DNA of 64,000 nt. Source: an uncultured Gammaproteobacteria bacterium. GTDB lineage: Bacteria; Patescibacteriota; Patescibacteriia; UBA9934; CAZDDW01. The position numbers were made by a program, and so were the translations under genes. Of the stretch, positions 5,719-53,771 are shown one piece after another. The DNA is taken from assembly GCA_964504365.1 (NCBI GenBank), contig CAZDDW010000002.1, positions 53,246 through 117,245 on the forward strand, read 5' to 3'. Position 1 is the stretch's first letter, and each line of letters begins with the position of its first letter. Below the pieces are notes generated by a model, which searched no databases, was not told the DNA's origin, and saw only the letters and a program-made list of their open reading frames with translations.

Positions 5719-6600
5719 ATGAAATTGATTGATACACACTGTCACGTTCACTTTAACGCATACAAAAAAGATTCAGATGAAGTCATCCGGCGTTCTTTGG
5801 ACGCCGGAATTTTGATGATAACTGTTGGCACACAAACAGATACCTCCCGCAAGGCTATTGAAGTGGCAAATAAATACGATGGTGTTTGGGCGACTGTTGG
5901 TTTGCACCCGAATCATTTGTGTGAGCAAGAGTTTATGGATCCAAACGAGATCGAAGAGATTTCTACAGTGAAGACGCGGTGTGAAAAGTTTAACCCTGAG
6001 GATTATCGGGAAATGGCCAAGGATCCAAAGGTTGTTGCCATTGGCGAGTTTGGTCTTGATTATTTTCACTTACCTGAACAACTGGACCGTGATCAGTTGA
6101 TAGCAGATCAGAAAGAATCAATGTTAGCAGAACTTGATTTCGCGGATGAGCTTGATTTGCCAGTGATCATTCACAGCCGTGATTCACACGATGACCAAAT
6201 TGCATTGTTAAAGGATTATATTGGAAAAGGGAAGTTGGCTCGCCGAGGTGTGGTTCATTGTTATACTGGAACACTAGAACAAGCTGAGAAATATTTCGAG
6301 CTAGGTTTTCTGATCTCGTTCACAGGTATCATTACCTTTCCGCCACGACGAAGTGAGATTAGTGCTGGGGTCGAACTGACTGAGATTCAAGAGGTTGTAA
6401 AAAAAGTTCCGCTTGATAAAATCATGGTTGAAACAGATGCACCATATTTATCACCAGTACCGCAACGTGGTAAACGGAACGAACCAGCTTACGTTCAACA
6501 TGTTGCAGAAAAGATTGCTGAGTTAAAGGGCATGTCATTGGAAGAGGTGATTGAAACAACTGGTAACAATGCGCAAAAACTTTTTAATATCAAATTTTGA
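5719..6600 (+). CDS. tatD: TatD-family metal-dependent DNase/hydrolase
   Basis: N-terminal LIDTHCHV motif and TatD-like length and architecture. Confidence 0.8.
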   Translation: MKLIDTHCHVHFNAYKKDSDEVIRRSLDAGILMITVGTQTDTSRKAIEVANKYDGVWATVGLHPNHLCEQEFMDPNEIEEISTVKTRCEKFNPEDYREMAKDPKVVAIGEFGLDYFHLPEQLDRDQLIADQKESMLAELDFADELDLPVIIHSRDSHDDQIALLKDYIGKGKLARRGVVHCYTGTLEQAEKYFELGFLISFTGIITFPPRRSEISAGVELTEIQEVVKKVPLDKIMVETDAPYLSPVPQRGKRNEPAYVQHVAEKIAELKGMSLEEVIETTGNNAQKLFNIKF

Positions 6601-6602
6601 TT

Positions 6603-6636
6603 TCTGACATTTGTCCTGATCAGGACAAATGTCAGA
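6603..6636. repeat. Perfect 34-bp palindrome (TCTGACATTTGTCCTGA|TCAGGACAAATGTCAGA)
   Basis: Read directly from the sequence; the two 17-nt arms are exact reverse complements. No T-run follows on either strand, so it is not a canonical intrinsic terminator. It lies right after tatD at the low-GC/high-GC junction. Confidence 0.9.
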
Positions 6637-6645
6637 AAATAAAGA

Positions 6646-6762: not shown

Positions 6763-8517
6763 CTAGGCTTGGTCTGCCGGCTGTTCCGAACTGGCCTCGG
6801 CTTCCTTCTCGGCCGCAGGTGCCGGTTCGGAAGGCTTGGCCTCGGTCTCGGCACCACTGGAGTCCGGTGCTTCGGCCGCAGGCTTACGAGGCCTACGGGG
6901 CCGACGCCGACTTCGCTTGCGCGGTGCCGGCTCCTCGGAACCTTCCTCAGCCGCTGACTCGGCTTCGGCTTCGGCCCTGGCTTCCTGGATCCGATCGACC
7001 AGTTGGTCGACCTGTTCCGAATCCACCAGACACCTGGCCGCCTTGATCAAGACGGTCGCCCGGAAACCCATGATTCCGGGATGAACACGCCCAGCCCAAC
7101 CACCACGACGCACGGCCTTGTAGCCGGTGTCATGTCCGCGGTCGAGCTGATCGAAGCTCACACCGAGCATGAGCTCGAGCTTGGCCAGGATCGTATCGGC
7201 ATCGGCATCGTCCTCGAGACCCAGAACCGTCAAGGCCTGGTATCTCTCGGGAACGCCGCTACCACGAACACTGAAGAGGAATTCCCCCTTGCCAAGAGCC
7301 AGCTTGATCGCGATTGCCCGTGCTTCACGCAAGAGCGCCTTGCGCACCTTGCGTCCGTCGGACGAGCTCGGATCACCAGACCACCTTGCGCTGCGCATGG
7401 CCTGGAAAGCCACATCTGAGGCATGGTCTGCCTGAAGCTGCTCGGACTTGATGACCAGAGCCGCATCGAACAGATCAGCCACCTCACCCTTGCCAGCACT
7501 CATGGTCTTGCCGACCAGAGCCATGACGTAGATCTTCACACGACCGCCGTCAGGCTGGGGAATCCAAACCTGGTTGTTGTACTTGGTCAGACCTGTCATG
7601 ACCAGCTCACGCCGGGCATCCTCGATGACCTGCAAACGCTCTTTGCGCCCCTGGTCAGAACTCGGATCACCCGGGAAGCCAGCATTGATCATGACCTGGA
7701 AGACCGGATCGTCAGCGCCTGGATCTCGAACATCGCTCAAGGCCTTGGCCCGCGCATCGACTGCGTTCGAACTGGTCTTGTCCGATTCGGAATCGAGTCC
7801 GAACATTTCCCAGCAGCTCATGAACGTACCAGTGCGTGCCACGATCGATCCCGGGGGACAGATCAGGGCTTCGGCCTTGGACTCATCGATCTTGACCGTG
7901 CCATCGTTGAACTCGCCGGCATCGACCATCTGCGCAGTTGCCCGCGCAGTGGCGTGGATCAAGCCAGGGTGCATCACCTTGAACATGATCGGAACCTGGG
8001 AACGATCCTTGACCGCACCGGCCTCGATCTCGTCGTCGTAGTACGGGGCCTCGTTCTGAGGACCGCGCCAGAGAACCTCTGCACCACGGAAATCACCGAT
8101 CCAACGCTGACCCTTCTTGGTGAAAGCGACGTAAAGGAAGTTGCGGTCAACAACCTCACCATCCAGCGCACCCTCTTCGCCGAGCCAGGTATGCTCGAAC
8201 ATCGGCCACGCCAGACTGGTGTTCCCGCGCATCGCAGACGGCTTCACAGCCACGCAGATGATCGGCGCACCCAAGCGCACCAACAGCCTGGTCGGATCCG
8301 GAATGACCACCTCGAATGTCTGGCCGCCTTCCACAGGCGTGAACTGACCAAGCACTCTTCCGCGATACAATCCATCTTCTCCCGTGGTACCAGGACCGTC
8401 GCTGCCAAAGAAGACCTGACCGTAGGAAAGATCACTCTGCCGGAAACGGTGTCCCAGCGGATGAAAAACCTCTCTGTTGATCCTGATCATCTCTTGTCTG
8501 TACATTTCGTCACTCAT
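6763..8517 (-). CDS. Hypothetical 584-aa protein from high-GC islet 1, with an internal duplication and a Lys/Arg/Pro-rich C-terminal tail
   Basis: Long ORF in a ~62% GC region, with GGAGG 7 nt upstream of ATG. Two internal segments resemble each other (SDVRDPGADDPVFQVMINAGFPGDPSSDQGRKERL and SDVAFQAMRSARWSGDPSSSDGRKVRK). The C-terminus (PRKRSRRRPRRPRKPAAEAP, followed by an acidic stretch) looks like a histone-H1-like disordered tail. A hairpin plus TTTTACTTTTG terminator follows downstream on the minus strand (~6700-6740). Confidence 0.6.
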   Translation of the reverse strand: MSDEMYRQEMIRINREVFHPLGHRFRQSDLSYGQVFFGSDGPGTTGEDGLYRGRVLGQFTPVEGGQTFEVVIPDPTRLLVRLGAPIICVAVKPSAMRGNTSLAWPMFEHTWLGEEGALDGEVVDRNFLYVAFTKKGQRWIGDFRGAEVLWRGPQNEAPYYDDEIEAGAVKDRSQVPIMFKVMHPGLIHATARATAQMVDAGEFNDGTVKIDESKAEALICPPGSIVARTGTFMSCWEMFGLDSESDKTSSNAVDARAKALSDVRDPGADDPVFQVMINAGFPGDPSSDQGRKERLQVIEDARRELVMTGLTKYNNQVWIPQPDGGRVKIYVMALVGKTMSAGKGEVADLFDAALVIKSEQLQADHASDVAFQAMRSARWSGDPSSSDGRKVRKALLREARAIAIKLALGKGEFLFSVRGSGVPERYQALTVLGLEDDADADTILAKLELMLGVSFDQLDRGHDTGYKAVRRGGWAGRVHPGIMGFRATVLIKAARCLVDSEQVDQLVDRIQEARAEAEAESAAEEGSEEPAPRKRSRRRPRRPRKPAAEAPDSSGAETEAKPSEPAPAAEKEAEASSEQPADQA

Positions 8518-47886: not shown

Positions 47887-47977
47887 ATAAGAATAATACA
47901 TCAGACTGCCTGTTTGGACAAGAAACACACTGACCCGAACAAAAACACACACTCTCAACACTCGACTCAATAAATAA

Positions 47978-47997
47978 CCGATCGGTTAGTTAGTGAA
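47978..47997. promoter_or_regulatory. Copy 1 of a 20-bp direct repeat, CCGATCGGTTAGTTAGTGAA, upstream of the U32 peptidase gene
   Basis: Exact 20-mer shared with 48600-48619. With flanks (ATA(A/G)CCGATCGG…), 23 of 24 nt match. It contains the palindrome CCGATCGG. Confidence 0.75.
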
Positions 47998-48009
47998 GTG
48001 CACTTAATT

Positions 48010-48561
48010 TTATTCTTCGGCTAAATAAACTTTGACCCAATCTTCAGCGTCTATTTCTTTAACTAAGGCGCGTAGATCGTTGACAACATCTTTTTTACTA
48101 CGCCACAGACTAAGATGAACAATCTCGAACTCGGCCTCTTTGAGCAAGTTCCTAATCACCCAACGAATATTTCTCACATGTTCTGGAATATCATACGAGA
48201 CCAAACAACACTTACCTTTAGATAATTCCTTTTTGGTGTCGATCACCTTCTGTTTTAAAACTTCGATCCGACCGCGGTCAGTCAATGAAACCAGGATCTT
48301 ATCGCCCTTGTCATCTAATTTAATTAACTCCTGTTCCACTAAACGTTTCTGTGCCTGCAGTTTTGCTTTTCTTTCCAGGCGCCTAGCTTGAATATTGGCT
48401 CCTCGCATCTGTCCCCTGACCAAACCGTAAGCTCCGCTCAACATATTTTTCTCTATTTGCGACGGCTGATCAAGCAAGTGTAATTTCCGATTCAATTCCC
48501 CGAGTTCATTTCTAGTTTTTGATCTTTTATATGTTGTTCTTCTCTTTTGCTCTTCAGACAT
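48010..48561 (-). CDS. Hypothetical basic protein with a C-terminal Cas2/VapD-like sequence pattern
   Basis: 183 aa. The N-terminal half is Lys/Arg-rich coiled coil. The C-terminal LVSYDIPEHVRNIRWVIRNLLKEAEFEIVHLSLWRS follows the Cas2 core pattern (hhhhYD[IV]…R…+.L…G.R.Q.S[VL]). The assignment is uncertain. Confidence 0.5.
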   Translation of the reverse strand: MSEEQKRRTTYKRSKTRNELGELNRKLHLLDQPSQIEKNMLSGAYGLVRGQMRGANIQARRLERKAKLQAQKRLVEQELIKLDDKGDKILVSLTDRGRIEVLKQKVIDTKKELSKGKCCLVSYDIPEHVRNIRWVIRNLLKEAEFEIVHLSLWRSKKDVVNDLRALVKEIDAEDWVKVYLAEE

Positions 48562-48599
48562 ACAAAAATATCATATCACAGATCTGATTCACTAGATAG

Positions 48600-48619
48600 C
48601 CGATCGGTTAGTTAGTGAA
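48600..48619. promoter_or_regulatory. Copy 2 of the 20-bp direct repeat, ~40 bp upstream of the 48561 start
   Basis: Exact 20-mer CCGATCGGTTAGTTAGTGAA. Confidence 0.75.
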
Positions 48620-48690
48620 TCATTGTATTTTGTGTCTTGGGTTTAATCTCTGTATATATTTCCACAAGTGATAAAGAAAAAAGGCCAGGA

Positions 48691-49080
48691 TCAAGTCCTG
48701 GCCGGAGAAGTCCGAACCCGGGCACGGTGCCGATCGCTGAAGTGTTCAGCAATCTTGCGCACCCAGAACCAGTTGTCAGTTTGTGTACCGTCTTGAAGGA
48801 AGGCCCTATTGCCTTCAAAGAGCAAGTGCCCATGCTCGGCACAGAATTCCACCAGCTCGGTCAGCATGGCCATACCCGGCTCATTGGCCCTAATCGTGAA
48901 AGCGTCGACAAGCACTGCCTCGTCGGTTGGCAAACTCTCCAGCCGTCCGTTCCAGCGCTGGAAATCGAACTCGGCCTGCACTCGGTGCATGGCCGCGCAG
49001 ACCCGTGAGGATCGCTCACCCAAGTTGATCACGTAGCCGGTGTAAAAAATCTTGACTTTGGTTTTTTTGTCGTCGCTCAT
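48691..49080 (-). CDS. Hypothetical 129-aa protein (islet 4)
   Basis: High-GC ORF with an AGGGGGA SD. A downstream minus-strand terminator GGCCAGGA…TCCTGGCC+TTTTTTCTTT lies at ~48655-48690. Confidence 0.5.
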   Translation of the reverse strand: MSDDKKTKVKIFYTGYVINLGERSSRVCAAMHRVQAEFDFQRWNGRLESLPTDEAVLVDAFTIRANEPGMAMLTELVEFCAEHGHLLFEGNRAFLQDGTQTDNWFWVRKIAEHFSDRHRARVRTSPART

Positions 49081-49176
49081 TTAATCCCCCTAAAAGAACC
49101 AGTTTTGGTTTTACCATTAATAAACGCGCCTGTCAACCCATGTTGCAATATGCTAAACTGGATCAGAGGAGGAGTC

Positions 49177-49671
49177 ATGGTAACAACCACTAAACGAGAA
49201 GCTGTACGAGAATCTCTCGGGCCTCTGGAACGTGCTCAACAAGCGAAGCAGGAACAACTTGCTCGTGTAAGAGCAGTATACGGTAAAGACGTTTCACATA
49301 TGGCCGAAGCGGCGGCAACAGATGTGTGGTACACGGCACTACTGAAGTTGAAGATGGTTGGTCCGTTCAGACGGATTGTGTTCGATGCTCTGAGGAGAAA
49401 CGATCCAAGACCAACAAAGGTTGTGGTCACAGGCAATTTCGGTGATGTGGTGATCACGTTATCTGATGACGAAGTTCGTTTCCAATACTACGGCGACCTG
49501 GAATTCCTCAAGCTTTCGTTCTTTCAAAAGACCTACCTACACAAACCAGGTCCTGAACGACCCTTGCGGATCGACTTCTCGGTTCCGGTCAAACCGTATC
49601 TTGACACAATCCATGACAACGATTTCGGTCGCGCCATGGACAGACTCAACAGCGGACACTGTCCTATCTAG
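49177..49671 (+). CDS. Hypothetical 164-aa protein (islet 4)
   Basis: AGGAGG SD 6 nt before ATG. An upstream TGTCAAC…TGcTAAACT promoter lies at ~49126-49155. A CCAGCTCAccTGAGCTGG+T6 terminator lies at 49675-49699. Confidence 0.55.
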   Translation: MVTTTKREAVRESLGPLERAQQAKQEQLARVRAVYGKDVSHMAEAAATDVWYTALLKLKMVGPFRRIVFDALRRNDPRPTKVVVTGNFGDVVITLSDDEVRFQYYGDLEFLKLSFFQKTYLHKPGPERPLRIDFSVPVKPYLDTIHDNDFGRAMDRLNSGHCPI

Positions 49672-49699: not shown

Positions 49700-49728
49700 T
49701 TGACTCAATCCCGTTAGCACTCTATAAT
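49700..49728 (+). promoter_or_regulatory. clpB promoter: TTGACT-17-TATAAT
   Basis: TTGACT at 49700-49705 and TATAAT at 49723-49728. Confidence 0.75.
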
Positions 49729-49740
49729 ACAGAGTGCTAA
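49714..49740. promoter_or_regulatory. Perfect CIRCE element (HrcA operator) overlapping the clpB -10 box
   Basis: TTAGCACTC-N9-GAGTGCTAA is an exact match to the CIRCE consensus, read directly. clpB starts 13 bp downstream. Confidence 0.85.
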
Positions 49741-49752
49741 TTTAAGCCTATT

Positions 49753-52395
49753 ATGTTACCAAACAACTTTACACACAAATCTCAAGAAGCTATTCAAAAT
49801 GCGCATAACCTAGCTGTTGAAAACGGTCAGGCAGCGATCGAGCCGATTCACTTACTCGCTTCCCTGCTCTCTCAGGACGACGGCGTGGTTATTTCTATTT
49901 TTGACAAAATGAATCTTGATATCGCCACCTTGCGGGGCGAGGTCGACACAATTCTGGATACGCTACCTAAGCAAGAAGCCATGGGTGGTGGCGGTATTGG
50001 CCAGGTTTACTTGTCACAACCAATGGCTCGTGTTTTTGCTACAGCCAACAAAATTGCCAAACAGTTCAAGGACGAATACATTTCAACTGAACACCTGTTC
50101 CTTGGTTTAATGGTCGACAAGAATGTTAAAGGTTTGTTGGAACGTTCTGGTGTAGTTGAGGCTGAGGTGTTAAAAGTTTTAAAAAAAATTCGAGGAAATC
50201 AGAAAGTGGATTCACCAGAACCAGAGTCTAAGTATCAGGCGCTGGAAAAATATTCAATGAACCTGACTGAAATGGCGCGACAAGAAAAACTGGATCCAAT
50301 TATTGGGCGCGACAAAGAAACTCGTCGTCTGATGCAGATCCTGACTCGCCGAACCAAGAACAACCCGGTCCTGATTGGTGAAGCAGGTGTTGGTAAAACT
50401 GCGATTGCCGAAGGTCTTGCTCAGCGAATTGTTGCTGGTGACGTTCCTGAGTCATTGAAGAATAAAGAACTAGTCGCTTTGGATCTTGGTGGTATGGTTG
50501 CTGGAACAAAATATCGTGGTGAGTTTGAGGATCGTTTGAAAGCCGTGATTAAAGAGATCGAAGAATCTGAAGGACAAATTCTGTTATTTATCGATGAGCT
50601 ACATACTTTAGTTGGAGCTGGAACTACAGAAGGCGGATCGCTTGATGCATCTAATTTACTCAAACCCGCTCTGGCTCGTGGAAAGCTGCGTACCATTGGC
50701 GCGACCACGCTCAAGGAATATCAGCGGCACATTGAAAAAGACCCAGCATTTGAACGTCGCTTCCAACCAGTGTTAGTTGAAGAACCTTCTATCGAGGATA
50801 CGATTGCTATTCTGCGTGGAATCAAAGACCGCTATGAACTGCATCACGGAATCCGCATTGCTGACGCAGCCATTATCGCTGCAGCTGAACTGTCCGCCCG
50901 CTACATTACTGACCGCTTTTTACCGGACAAAGCCGTTGACCTGATCGACGAGGCTGGCTCTGCTTTGCGTATGGAGATTGATTCCATGCCTGAGGAGCTT
51001 GACCATTACAAACGTGATGCTATGCGTCTTGAGATCGAGCGTGAGGCTTTGAAAAAAGAAGAAGACAAGGATTCTAAAGCTCGACTTGAAGAGATCGAAA
51101 AGCAACTAGCGGATCTGAACGAACAGTCTCGTGAACTGGAAATGAAATGGAAGAATGAGAAAGATAAGATCGCCGAAATCCGAGCCATTAAAAAAGCCAC
51201 TGATGAACTTCGAGCAATGGCTGACATTGAGGAACGTCGCGGCAACCTGCAGAAAGTTGCTGAAATCCGCTACAGCAAGATCCCGGCGCAGGAAGAAAAA
51301 CTGAAAAAGACAGAGGCCGAACTAGTTAACATGCAAAAAGATCGCGGTTTACTGAAAGAAGTTGTTCAGGATGAAGATATCGCCACAGTAGTATCCCGCT
51401 GGACCAACATTCCTGTTTCAAAAATGCTTGAATCAGAACTGACTAAACTGACGCGCATGGAAGAAGTGTTGTCAAAACGAGTTATTGGTCAGTCTGAAGC
51501 GATTGAAGCCGTCTCAAACGCTCTACGTCGCTCTCGAGCCGGTATTGCTGAAGAAGGCCGCCCAATCGGATCATTCCTGTTTTTAGGACCTACCGGAGTC
51601 GGAAAGACCGAACTTGCGAGAACTTTGGCCGACTTCATGTTCAACGACGAAAGCGCATTGGTACGTATCGACATGTCTGAGTACATGGAAAAGCATGCTA
51701 CTTCGAAAATTATTGGATCGCCTCCAGGTTATGTTGGATATGAAGAAGGCGGACAGCTAACTGAGATCGTTCGGCGCCGACCGTACAGTGTTATCTTGTT
51801 TGACGAGATTGAAAAAGCTCACCCAGATGCGTTTAACATGTTGCTTCAGATTTTGGACGAGGGGCACCTGACAGACGCCAAGGGTCGCAAGGTAAACTTC
51901 AAAAATACTGTTATCATCATGACTTCAAACATTGGATCTGACGCGATCTTAGAAATGACTACCAAAGGTGGCGGCGAGCTTGGGTTCGAATCAGATCGCA
52001 GCGATTCACCAGAACGCGATGAGGAGCGTATGCGCGAACGAGTGATGGGTATGCTCACAGAACACTTCCGCCCTGAATTCCTGAACCGGCTAGATGAAAT
52101 TACTATCTTCCACTCATTGTCTGAAGATAACATCAAACATATTGTTGAACTGCAGCTTGATCGGGTAGCCAAGCGCTTGCAAGAGCGGCGCAAGATCAAG
52201 ATCAAGATTACTGATGCGGCCAAAAAGCTGCTGGCAGAAAAGGGCTACGATCCCGCATTCGGTGCTCGCCCACTCAAACGCGTCATCCAAACTGAGATCT
52301 TAGATGCCCTGGCCAAGAGAATCATCGCCTCTGAGATCGAAGAAGAATCGACGATCACAATCGATGCGAGGAAAGAACAGATCACTATTTCATAA
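49753..52395 (+). CDS. clpB: Chaperone ClpB (AAA+ disaggregase)
   Basis: Two AAA+ modules ([15 protein letters not shown] and [11 protein letters not shown]), a middle coiled-coil domain, and an N-terminal Clp-N repeat. Length is 880 aa. Confidence 0.95.
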
Positions 52396-52438: not shown

Positions 52439-52813
52439 TTAGATTCCGGACTTGAACTCGACCGGGACCTGGAAGACGTGGTTGGGCTCGATGTCGCGAG
52501 CTTCCATCCAAGCCTTGAGGGCTCTGAGCTGCAACCTGACAGGGTCATGGCCGCAATAGTAAGTCGTATCGCCTCTTACCTGAACCTCGCAGTCCATTGT
52601 CAGAACTAATTCCAGATCTCCATTGGATCGACGAACATGTACCACACCTTCTGGTCGTTTATCTTCGTCAACGATGAGCTGAAAACTCAGACCATGCTCT
52701 CGCACTCCCGCTTCACTGACTGGAATGATGGCTAGTCCAGTTTGCTCGGTCAAGTCACCCTTGGCCTCGGGTGAAAACACGATAGCCACGAAACCGATTT
52801 TCTCAACAGTCAC
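52439..52813 (-). CDS. Hypothetical 124-aa protein (GTG start), islet 5
   Basis: AAAGGA SD before GTG; high GC. Confidence 0.5.
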   Translation of the reverse strand: MTVEKIGFVAIVFSPEAKGDLTEQTGLAIIPVSEAGVREHGLSFQLIVDEDKRPEGVVHVRRSNGDLELVLTMDCEVQVRGDTTYYCGHDPVRLQLRALKAWMEARDIEPNHVFQVPVEFKSGI

Positions 52814-52919
52814 AGTGTTTCCTTTCTCTGTGGATTGTAATGGTTCAATGAATTAGACCTTAACAATCCTGTTCAGACTTGTCAAAATAAAAGACTCCGC
52901 AGTGATGCGGAGTTTTGAG

Positions 52920-53771
52920 TTACTCCTCCTCGCCGTTGTCGTCTTCTTCATCCGGATCCGGCTGTTGCTGGATCGGTCCTTCTGGCTGAACAAAGAAGAC
53001 TGGCCTGGCTTCTAGCTCGGTCGCCGGAATCCCTTCGTCCTGCAACAACTTTAGTAAAGCCGATTCGAACTCACCGAAAGTTGCGTGCACAAATTTGGGA
53101 CGAAAGCGCTCCTCAACGGAGTCAAAGAACTCCAGATGATCCCAAATATCTCCTGCCGGAAACATGTATGAGAACCGCGGATGACTACTTGTCCCTATAC
53201 CAGCACTAAATCGCACTGGCACTGTCTGGATCAACAGGCGGGCCACCGGTTCATCAATCCCACCTCCTGAGAACTGGGGGTACTTTAAATCAACGATTAG
53301 TTGTCTGCCCCCTGCCAGGAAACAGCGCAAATCAAATTTGACACCGGAAAGCAATATTGAGAAAAAGGACATTCTCCTGTCATCTTCATAATCAGGACTG
53401 CACCTATCCGATATGACGTAACGACCTCGTTCCCTGCTCAGTGATGGTAAGCGGAGCTCGTTCCTTTCGACACGCTTCCCGTAATACCCACGCAACGTTT
53501 TACGGTTTCGATCAAGTAGCGCTTGTGCCACCTGATCTTTATAGGTTGGCCGACCCTTGGCAGCCACACCCTTATTCATCCAACGCCAATCAGCTTGTAG
53601 CTGCTTGAAATCAGGTGGCAAGAGTCGACAGTCGGCTGGCACAAAATCAGGATCAGCATGCATCCTTTTCAGGTGCTCAACGCTTCGCGACAGCAAGAGC
53701 AACTTCTCGTAGAAGTCACGCATACCACACTGCGCGATATCGCGCCAAAGTTCGGAAGTAAAAAGAGCCAT
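52920..53771 (-). CDS. Hypothetical 283-aa protein with an acidic C-terminal tail (islet 5)
   Basis: GGAGATG SD. A terminator ACTCCGCA…TGCGGAGT+TCTTTTATTTTGACAAG lies downstream on the minus strand. Confidence 0.55.
   Translation of the reverse strand: MALFTSELWRDIAQCGMRDFYEKLLLLSRSVEHLKRMHADPDFVPADCRLLPPDFKQLQADWRWMNKGVAAKGRPTYKDQVAQALLDRNRKTLRGYYGKRVERNELRLPSLSRERGRYVISDRCSPDYEDDRRMSFFSILLSGVKFDLRCFLAGGRQLIVDLKYPQFSGGGIDEPVARLLIQTVPVRFSAGIGTSSHPRFSYMFPAGDIWDHLEFFDSVEERFRPKFVHATFGEFESALLKLLQDEGIPATELEARPVFFVQPEGPIQQQPDPDEEDDNGEEE

Follow-up and report, generated by a model that had tools for sequence, protein, structure and literature searches.

A short PaaX-like protein encoded between two matching palindromes, a putative autoregulatory module found mostly in Patescibacteria

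Why is a small gene for a basic protein bordered on both sides by the same repeat, and what has its product to do with this repeat? The question is raised by gene 48010–48561 in a stretch of 64,000 nucleotides (nt) of contig CAZDDW010000002.1 (assembly GCA_964504365.1, positions 53,246 to 117,245), the whole of which is called the window in the following and to which all coordinates refer unless another locus is named. A preliminary description made from the sequence alone had seen a 24-bp direct repeat, possibly a shared operator, around a protein with a Cas2/VapD-like C-terminus. From the domains of the protein, the architecture of the repeat and a comparison with relatives we consider it probable that the locus is a self-contained autoregulatory module, in which a dimeric short PaaX-like regulator is combined with two matching putative operators. 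The gene, taken from the list of open reading frames (ORFs), and the part of it that codes for the Cas2-like domain are:

48010..48561, minus strand: gene of the short PaaX-like protein, 183 amino acids (aa); ORF list, PF20803, AlphaFold and Foldseek
48010..48213, minus strand: region coding for the Cas2-like domain (residues 117–183) with D124, R133 and S151 and the motif LVSYDIPE...R...R...LK...F...H.SLW

To which family does this protein belong? In Pfam, residues 116–181 match the central Cas2-like domain of PaaX (PF20803) with 34.2 bits at a cut-off of 24, and the protein ends at residue 183, directly after this domain; neither the N-terminal PaaX domain PF07848 (at E ≤ 1) nor the PaaX_C domain PF08223 was matched. 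The NCBIfam model of PaaX, TIGR02277, could be aligned with residues 70–178 at 17.9 bits against a cut-off of 264.55, and using a profile of 61 relatives in hhalign, residues 65–183 were found to correspond to PaaX residues 55–178 (E = 0.0011), a stretch taking in the recognition helix, the wing, the linker and the central domain. A search of the PDB sequences with the single sequence gave no match. An AlphaFold model built on a 31-sequence alignment (predicted local distance difference test, pLDDT, 84.5; above 95 in the C-terminal half) has a basic tail, helices at residues 15–26, 35–41 and 48–76 and a β-hairpin wing at 80–93 in its N-terminal half, followed by a linker helix (95–108) and a β-α-β-β-α-β domain over residues 117–182. 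The N-terminal half had been taken for a Lys/Arg-rich coiled coil before, which the modelled helices and the β-hairpin wing rule out.

Comparing this model with the PDB by Foldseek, E. coli PaaX (8a39) was the top full-length match and the PaaX-like Rv0674 was also among the matches, together with dozens of Cas2 chains at a probability of 0.93–0.99 and a root mean square deviation of ~3 Å over ~70 columns, and VapD (6zn8, VapXD complex) at a probability of 0.72. Modelled alone (pLDDT 79.7), the N-terminal 112 residues match the winged-helix DNA binders AF1382, AspA, F93, CzrA, TubR, MarR and PadR at a probability of 0.75–0.98, yet with just 36–52 columns aligned and E-values above 0.2, and the family profile aligns in its N-terminal half with ArsR-type repressors (E = 0.015–0.03); the half is modelled as a winged-helix-type fold and is predicted to bind DNA. 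The same profile shows a weak match to Cas2 sequences in the PDB over β1-α1-β2 (E = 0.003–0.01). D124, R133 and S151 are invariant in all 181 of the 181 family sequences and P126 is found in 179 of them, D124 being aligned with the Asp of the Cas2 ‘FDMP’ and the family motif with ‘FDMP...FSVY’. The Cas2-like pattern seen earlier in the C-terminus is thus right by sequence, motif and fold, including the peptide quoted for it, and the structure prediction proposed as a check did return a Cas2-like fold.

Nevertheless the protein is not best classed as a stand-alone Cas2. Pfam gave no Cas2 match, the PADLOC Cas2 model reached 13.3 bits (E = 0.021), far below its threshold, and no match passed for the protein in the defence and phage family libraries PADLOC and PHROGs. 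As already noted in the preliminary description, a CRISPR-like array of regularly spaced repeats is absent from the 64 kb window, and no cas1 or other cas gene was found among the neighbouring genes examined (~5 kb), the whole window not having been scanned for cas1. From the proposed choice between a standalone Cas2-like nuclease and a regulator fused to a nucleic-acid-binding arm, the regulator is preferred, the arm being modelled as a winged-helix half, while the classification as a stand-alone Cas2 or VapD nuclease is rejected in view of the sub-threshold sequence scores, the lack of a cas context and that same winged-helix half. The appropriate class is that of a short PaaX-like regulator composed of a winged-helix half and a Cas2-like domain, without the ligand-binding domain. 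No paralog of its gene is present within the window.

What, then, are the two copies of the repeat? The 24-mer occurs where it had been placed, as ATAACCGATCGGTTAGTTAGTGAA at 47974–47997 and as ATAGCCGATCGGTTAGTTAGTGAA at 48596–48619, but it is not a plain direct repeat, since the repeat finder extended the match to 34 nt with 88% identity (47964–47997 versus 48586–48619) and each copy of 34–36 nt is an inverted repeat in itself with the centre CCGATCGG. Both palindromes, of which 30 of 36 positions are identical, are regarded as putative operators:

48586..48621, no strand: putative operator 1, the upstream palindrome; on the gene strand GATTCACTAACTAACC GATC GGCTATCTAGTGAATC, centre 42 nt 5' of the ATG
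47964..47997, no strand: putative operator 2, the downstream palindrome; on the gene strand TTCACTAACTAACC GATC GGTTATTTATTGAGTC, centre 28 nt 3' of the stop codon

When further copies were searched with the 20-mer of the repeat, allowing up to three mismatches, the 64 kb window contained none beyond these two flanking sites, which are hit on both strands via the palindrome, and the number expected by chance is 0 (100 shuffles).

Is this arrangement a property of the window or of the protein family? With an exhaustive profile search at E ≤ 0.001 the family comprises 1,908 clusters (50% identity), of which 525 are still found at E ≤ 1e-10; most have 160–200 aa and match at positions ~60–182. 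The few source names available are ‘hypothetical protein’ from Patescibacteria or Parcubacteria, one metagenome-assembled genome of Nanoarchaeia and one ‘PaaX’, and the family appears to come mostly from Patescibacteria; within it the Cas2-like domain is the conserved part of the protein and the N-terminal half is variable. Searching the literature for PaaX together with Cas2 or with Patescibacteria revealed no description of the family. A scan of the genome collection yielded three loci and 36 more were taken from metagenomes; 44 non-redundant loci (numbered with L in the following) were each scanned end to end for palindromes with at least 12 of 15 arm matches.

In the closest relative, L001, whose protein has 70% identity, the synteny is kept: clpB is followed by the gene in the opposite orientation and this by tagA and gltX. 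Its palindromes, one upstream of the gene and one directly behind the stop codon, have diverged from those of the window and retain the ACCGATCGG centre. The presence of the gene at this place in a relative, another check that had been proposed, is thereby confirmed, with LigT in the position of U32. Members with 28–52% identity have palindromes of their own at the same two positions. Altogether an upstream palindrome was detected in 24 of 41 testable loci, a downstream palindrome in 31 of 43 and both in 21, and over the 44 loci the palindrome density is 4.69 per kb in the zones flanking the gene and 0.178 per kb elsewhere (26×). The centre is near-constant, reading CGATCG: GATC is found in 37 of the 55 flanking sites, and among the 90 half-sites C-3 is conserved in 88, G-2 in 86 and A-1 in 72, with the outer CA being weaker (55 and 62). 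The arms in contrast differ from locus to locus, whereas the two copies of one locus are usually near-identical (up to 36/36), which is the pattern expected of matched protein–site pairs. Arms and N-terminal half of the protein are thus both variable, and the centre and the Cas2-like domain are both conserved.

Individual loci show variations of this layout. In GCA_018824525.1 two paralogs, P0003 and P0005 (L002 and L005; 45–47% identical to the query), are encoded at unrelated places and their palindromes have different arms and the centres AACCGATCGGTT and TACGATCGT, respectively, which suggests diverged specificities within one cell. L030 (1321–2400) contains a full-length member of 187 aa with its palindrome, a 95-aa N-terminally truncated paralog (2038–2325) and a third palindrome (~2353–2383) that differs in sequence; here the gene is duplicated in tandem, with a separate site for each copy. 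L048 (~876–1027 and 1884) has three palindrome copies, two of them 282 and 403 nt upstream of the gene and one after the stop codon, and no palindrome directly before the ATG.

Sequences of this kind on both sides of a gene might also be the traces of a selfish or mobile cassette, either as the ends of the element, comparable to REP sequences with their transposase or to hairpin-ended insertion sequences, or as target-site duplications. The gene always lies between two like palindromes, the window and L001 do not have the same genes next to the module, and the paralogs at unrelated places as well as the tandem truncated copy with its further palindrome in L030 would fit such an origin. However, the gene is still found between clpB and tagA-gltX in a relative whose protein is 70% identical, which indicates vertical descent, and just two copies of the motif are present in 64 kb and none is dispersed. 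Neither a transposase nor an integrase or HUH-type protein is encoded in the module or the flanking genes examined, and the protein itself matches no known phage or defence family. A target duplication would moreover be non-palindromic and devoid of a GATC centre common to unrelated loci, and it is ruled out by both features of the copies. That relatives with 28–70% identity have their own palindromes at the same positions supports the earlier preference for a shared, putative binding site over a target-site duplication. We regard a mobile cassette as very improbable.

For which gene is the second copy meant? It is located between the stop codon of the regulator and the start of the U32 gene, which are co-directional and 126 nt apart, with its centre ~95 nt 5' of the U32 ATG (47884), and it had been proposed to control U32. 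The protein would then be a dedicated regulator of U32 and of itself, and among 27 loci the downstream neighbours of 16 are co-directional. The remaining 11 of 27 are convergent, however, and L001 has LigT and not U32 after the same palindrome, with FtsEX, rplI, CysRS, UvrC, RadA, a Clp ATPase and tRNA genes being found at this place in others; a conserved partner gene among the downstream neighbours was looked for and not found. Whatever comes next, the downstream palindrome follows the stop codon at 6–68 nt, and its distance to the next gene is not conserved. The U32 gene also has a promoter-like site of its own outside the palindrome:

47893..47921, minus strand: promoter-like site of the U32 gene, TTGTCC-17-TATTAT, ~45 nt beyond operator 2 and without overlap

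The constant distance to the stop codon, the varied and often convergent neighbours and the non-overlapping promoter-like site of U32 argue that the second copy is part of the regulator's own module, and its proposed role as the operator of U32 is hence not upheld; we rate a dedicated U32 regulator as quite unlikely.

The location just after the stop codon would also suit transcription terminators of the ordinary bidirectional type, which would shield a small gene and be unconnected with the protein it encodes, and several downstream copies, such as those of L021, L047 and L042, indeed have a GC-rich inner stem that is preceded by an A-run and followed by a T-run. Terminators would not explain why the same sequence is present again just before the ATG nor why the CGATCG centre is conserved across the family, and other terminator-like palindromes in these loci are of a different form. 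In the window, a scan for intrinsic terminators called neither palindrome but an ordinary terminator 60 nt away (48703–48683):

48683..48703, minus strand: terminator-like hairpin with T-run at the end of the upstream orphan ORF, the upstream boundary of the module

Mere terminators are in our opinion scarcely credible.

How could the protein act on its own gene from these sites? The upstream palindrome overlaps or abuts the promoter region, for which two candidates can be read from the sequence:

48570..48578, minus strand: candidate extended -10 element TGaTATGAT, 8 nt 5' of the ATG
48640..48667, minus strand: alternative weak promoter TTGTGG-16-TAAACC, 5' of the palindrome, proposed from its position

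With TGaTATGAT as -10 element the palindrome centre would lie near -41 and the mRNA would be near-leaderless. In L001 a TGgTATAAT is placed equivalently with respect to the palindrome of that locus; a two-hexamer promoter scan did not pick up the TGaTATGAT element of the window. The -10 box of the alternative promoter ends 36 nt before the palindrome centre, compared to 35–37 nt for the clear promoters of L008, L053 and L062, where a full promoter precedes the palindrome, which would span ~+11 to +47.

In the autoregulation model the protein would dimerise via its Cas2-like domain, as PaaX and Cas2 do, and the dimer would be placed on the dyad such that its invariant Cas2-like domain covers the equally invariant centre. 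The two variable winged-helix domains and their basic tails would read the variable outer arms ~27 bp apart. Such a spacing would fit the reach of E. coli PaaX, which represses its own promoter and whose site TGATTC-N27-GAATCA spans ~39 bp with two inverted halves ~30 bp apart (PMC9493321). Binding to the upstream site would set the expression of the gene itself, with repression being the likeliest outcome. The downstream site, which is ~620 bp off, may act together with the upstream site by looping or, as an alternative, might form a roadblock, shielding the gene from adjacent genes or stopping read-through; it would not be an operator of the neighbour. Further targets of the protein, if there are any, would be located beyond the window. 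As far as an autoregulated repressor can be recognised from its locus, there is a palindrome at the gene's own promoter, its position is conserved in relatives and it varies together with the protein.

On the gene strand the upstream site of the window (48584–48623) reads TGATTC-N26-GAATCA and is therewith near the E. coli PaaX site, which may be a coincidence; we give no weight to this likeness because the other copy and the relatives are without these hexamers.

Several points weigh against the autoregulation model. The E-values of the structural matches are weak (0.02 to 0.7), and binding of the protein to the palindromes is for every member a prediction from sequence. Palindromes went undetected at 17 of 41 upstream and 12 of 43 downstream flanks, the promoter geometry differs between the loci with that of the window being itself a candidate only, and activation would likewise be conceivable from a site centred near -41. 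In the operator model no role falls to the invariant Cas2-type Asp. Furthermore, 20 of the 55 sites are perfect palindromes over 15/15 arm positions, and the differences between the two sites of one locus comprise 19 compensated double changes versus 9 uncompensated ones and 49 one-sided changes, with 19 compensated changes being reached in none of 5,000 permutations. A plain read-out of the duplex by one homodimer does not predict such symmetric differences or perfect arms.

Recognition of a hairpin or cruciform, or arm-to-arm conversion, would predict the symmetric differences. The main rival of the autoregulation model is accordingly that folded DNA or RNA palindromes are bound, and maybe cut via the Cas2-type Asp, resulting in a post-transcriptional or structure-specific self-control. 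Besides the compensated differences and the many sites that are perfect palindromes of 34–38 nt, the non-palindromic centres of some sites (GGTC, GACC, GAAC) would fit a loop, and the predicted 5' leaders of L008, L053 and L062 contain the upstream palindrome, which often adjoins the ATG. Cas2 proteins have a reported nuclease activity that depends on a conserved Asp, and all family sequences keep D124, R133 and S151, whereas the Asp is missing from E. coli PaaX. An RNA hairpin of the sense strand should leave a bias between G·T and A·C mismatches, but these are balanced (31 versus 25), and the non-palindromic centres occur in both orientations; both findings show no strand-specific RNA signal, and this variant is thus not supported. 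The palindromes of the window also fold weakly as single strands (downstream site, sense strand, -3.5 kcal/mol, z = -1.1) and no RNA family of Rfam matches the sites. The upstream copy would escape transcription in the window and in L001, with the likely promoter being located downstream of it, and the N-terminal half resembles a binder of duplex DNA. Taken together we think that hairpin recognition with a possible role of the Cas2-type Asp is unlikely.

Going further, the Cas2-like domain could be active, either structure-recognising or metal-binding, reading the CGATCG of an extruded hairpin or cruciform and perhaps cutting it, with the repeat–gene–repeat unit possibly being a semi-selfish cassette. 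We would give this only a small chance. If true, a free-living Cas2 relative that recognises ~36-bp palindromic repeats would be widespread in Patescibacteria, and this would be relevant to the origin of the partnership between Cas2 and palindromic repeats.

How does the autoregulated module compare with known systems? E. coli PaaX (PDB 8a39), the phenylacetyl-CoA-responsive repressor of the paa genes, also has a winged-helix half followed by a Cas2-like domain, and PF20803 scores 33.5 bits in it, close to the value found here. It contains however all three Pfam domains (PF07848, PF20803 and PF08223) in 316 aa, whereas the family protein with its 183 aa lacks the ligand-binding PaaX_C domain and any match to PF07848, stays far below the TIGR02277 cut-off and has no paa genes nearby; from five marks of a PaaX only PF20803 is thus present and four are missing. 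The relatives of the 183-aa protein adjoin unrelated housekeeping genes, and the family has kept the Cas2-type D-I-P-E motif, which is lost in E. coli PaaX. Its sites are also different from the two separated halves of the PaaX site, as they are unbroken palindromes that have a conserved centre and border the gene at both ends.

With Cas2, whose dimers lie along duplex DNA, the protein shares the β-α-β-β-α-β fold, a β1 ending in Asp, an Arg-rich α1 and a ‘Q/H-x-S-V/L-W/F’ motif. Here the domain is fused to a winged-helix half, a sequence-model match is missing with the scores being sub-threshold, and neither a nearby cas1 nor an array in the window provides a cas context. VapD, a Cas2-fold toxin of toxin–antitoxin pairs, belongs to the same fold class but its match is weaker than that of Cas2; no partner antitoxin gene is found here, the neighbours vary, and VapD is without an N-terminal DNA-binding half. 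Proteins of the Lrp/AsnC type (~150–170 aa) follow the same plan at the same size, with a DNA-binding N-terminal half and a ferredoxin-like C-terminal oligomerisation domain, yet the AsnC-type Pfam domain PF01037 was not matched and AldR (4pcq) reached a Foldseek probability of just 0.15–0.18 compared to more than 0.9 for Cas2. Regarding the layout, the repressor gene of phage lambda CI lies between the operator sets OL and OR, which cooperate by looping, and by analogy the regulator gene described here is placed between two like, putative sites several hundred bp apart. In contrast to lambda there is one palindrome per side instead of triple operators, the protein families are unrelated and a phage context is absent.

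The PF20803 domain is already catalogued in Pfam. To our knowledge there is so far no description of a very large family of Patescibacteria with this short two-domain architecture, of the retention of the Cas2 signature in it or of the conserved palindrome–gene–palindrome module. Patescibacteria have tiny genomes with few recognisable regulators, and the family of ~1,900 clusters, almost entirely annotated as hypothetical, now gains a concrete model as a two-domain PaaX-like regulator whose putative binding site can be read from the DNA flanking each gene. This provides ready-made putative protein–site pairs for studying the evolution of binding specificity. As the family keeps the Cas2 signature that canonical PaaX has lost, it would connect Cas2-fold proteins more clearly than anything so far with the sequence-specific recognition of long palindromes. 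A mechanism based on the recognition of hairpins, should this be what the symmetric changes point to, would be uncommon among winged-helix regulators.

The gene neighbours of the module in the window are gltX, tagA, U32, clpB and orphan ORFs. Just 5' of clpB (49753–52395) there is a perfect CIRCE element at 49714–49740 (TTAGCACTC-N9-GAGTGCTAA), the heat-shock operator of HrcA, and the same element precedes clpB in L001 (~5770–5796); clpB is therefore under HrcA-type control and its regulation by the 183-aa protein was discarded. Chaperone genes are found near other members as well, with groES-groEL downstream in L025 (3599–5498), HSP20 in L005 (2149–2544) and the Clp ATPase downstream in L052 (708–2097) in addition to clpB in the window and in L001, a recurrence that may be due to chance in small, gene-dense genomes.

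Between the regulator and clpB two orphan ORFs are located at 48691–49080 (minus strand, 129 aa) and 49105–49671 (plus strand, 188 aa), which gave no match in Pfam, NCBIfam, PADLOC and PHROGs. Their stretch has a G+C content of 0.50–0.53 compared to ~0.43, and they are missing from the syntenic L001 and present in all other contigs carrying the identical regulator, which looks like a lineage-specific insertion. Further ORFs with a G+C content above that of the sequence around them are found at 6763–8517 and 52439–53771, both on the minus strand, one of them coding for 584 aa with a low-complexity acidic and Pro/Ala-rich tail.

Finally, the window contains a perfect 36-nt palindrome at 6601–6638, TTCTGACATTTGTCC TGATCA GGACAAATGTCAGAA, directly 3' of a TatD-like gene (5719–6600) and followed by an ordinary terminator. 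It resembles the putative operators in style, with a GATC centre and an outer ..CA, no PaaX_M gene lies nearby, and the palindrome may thus be an orphan site belonging to a paralog whose gene is located elsewhere.

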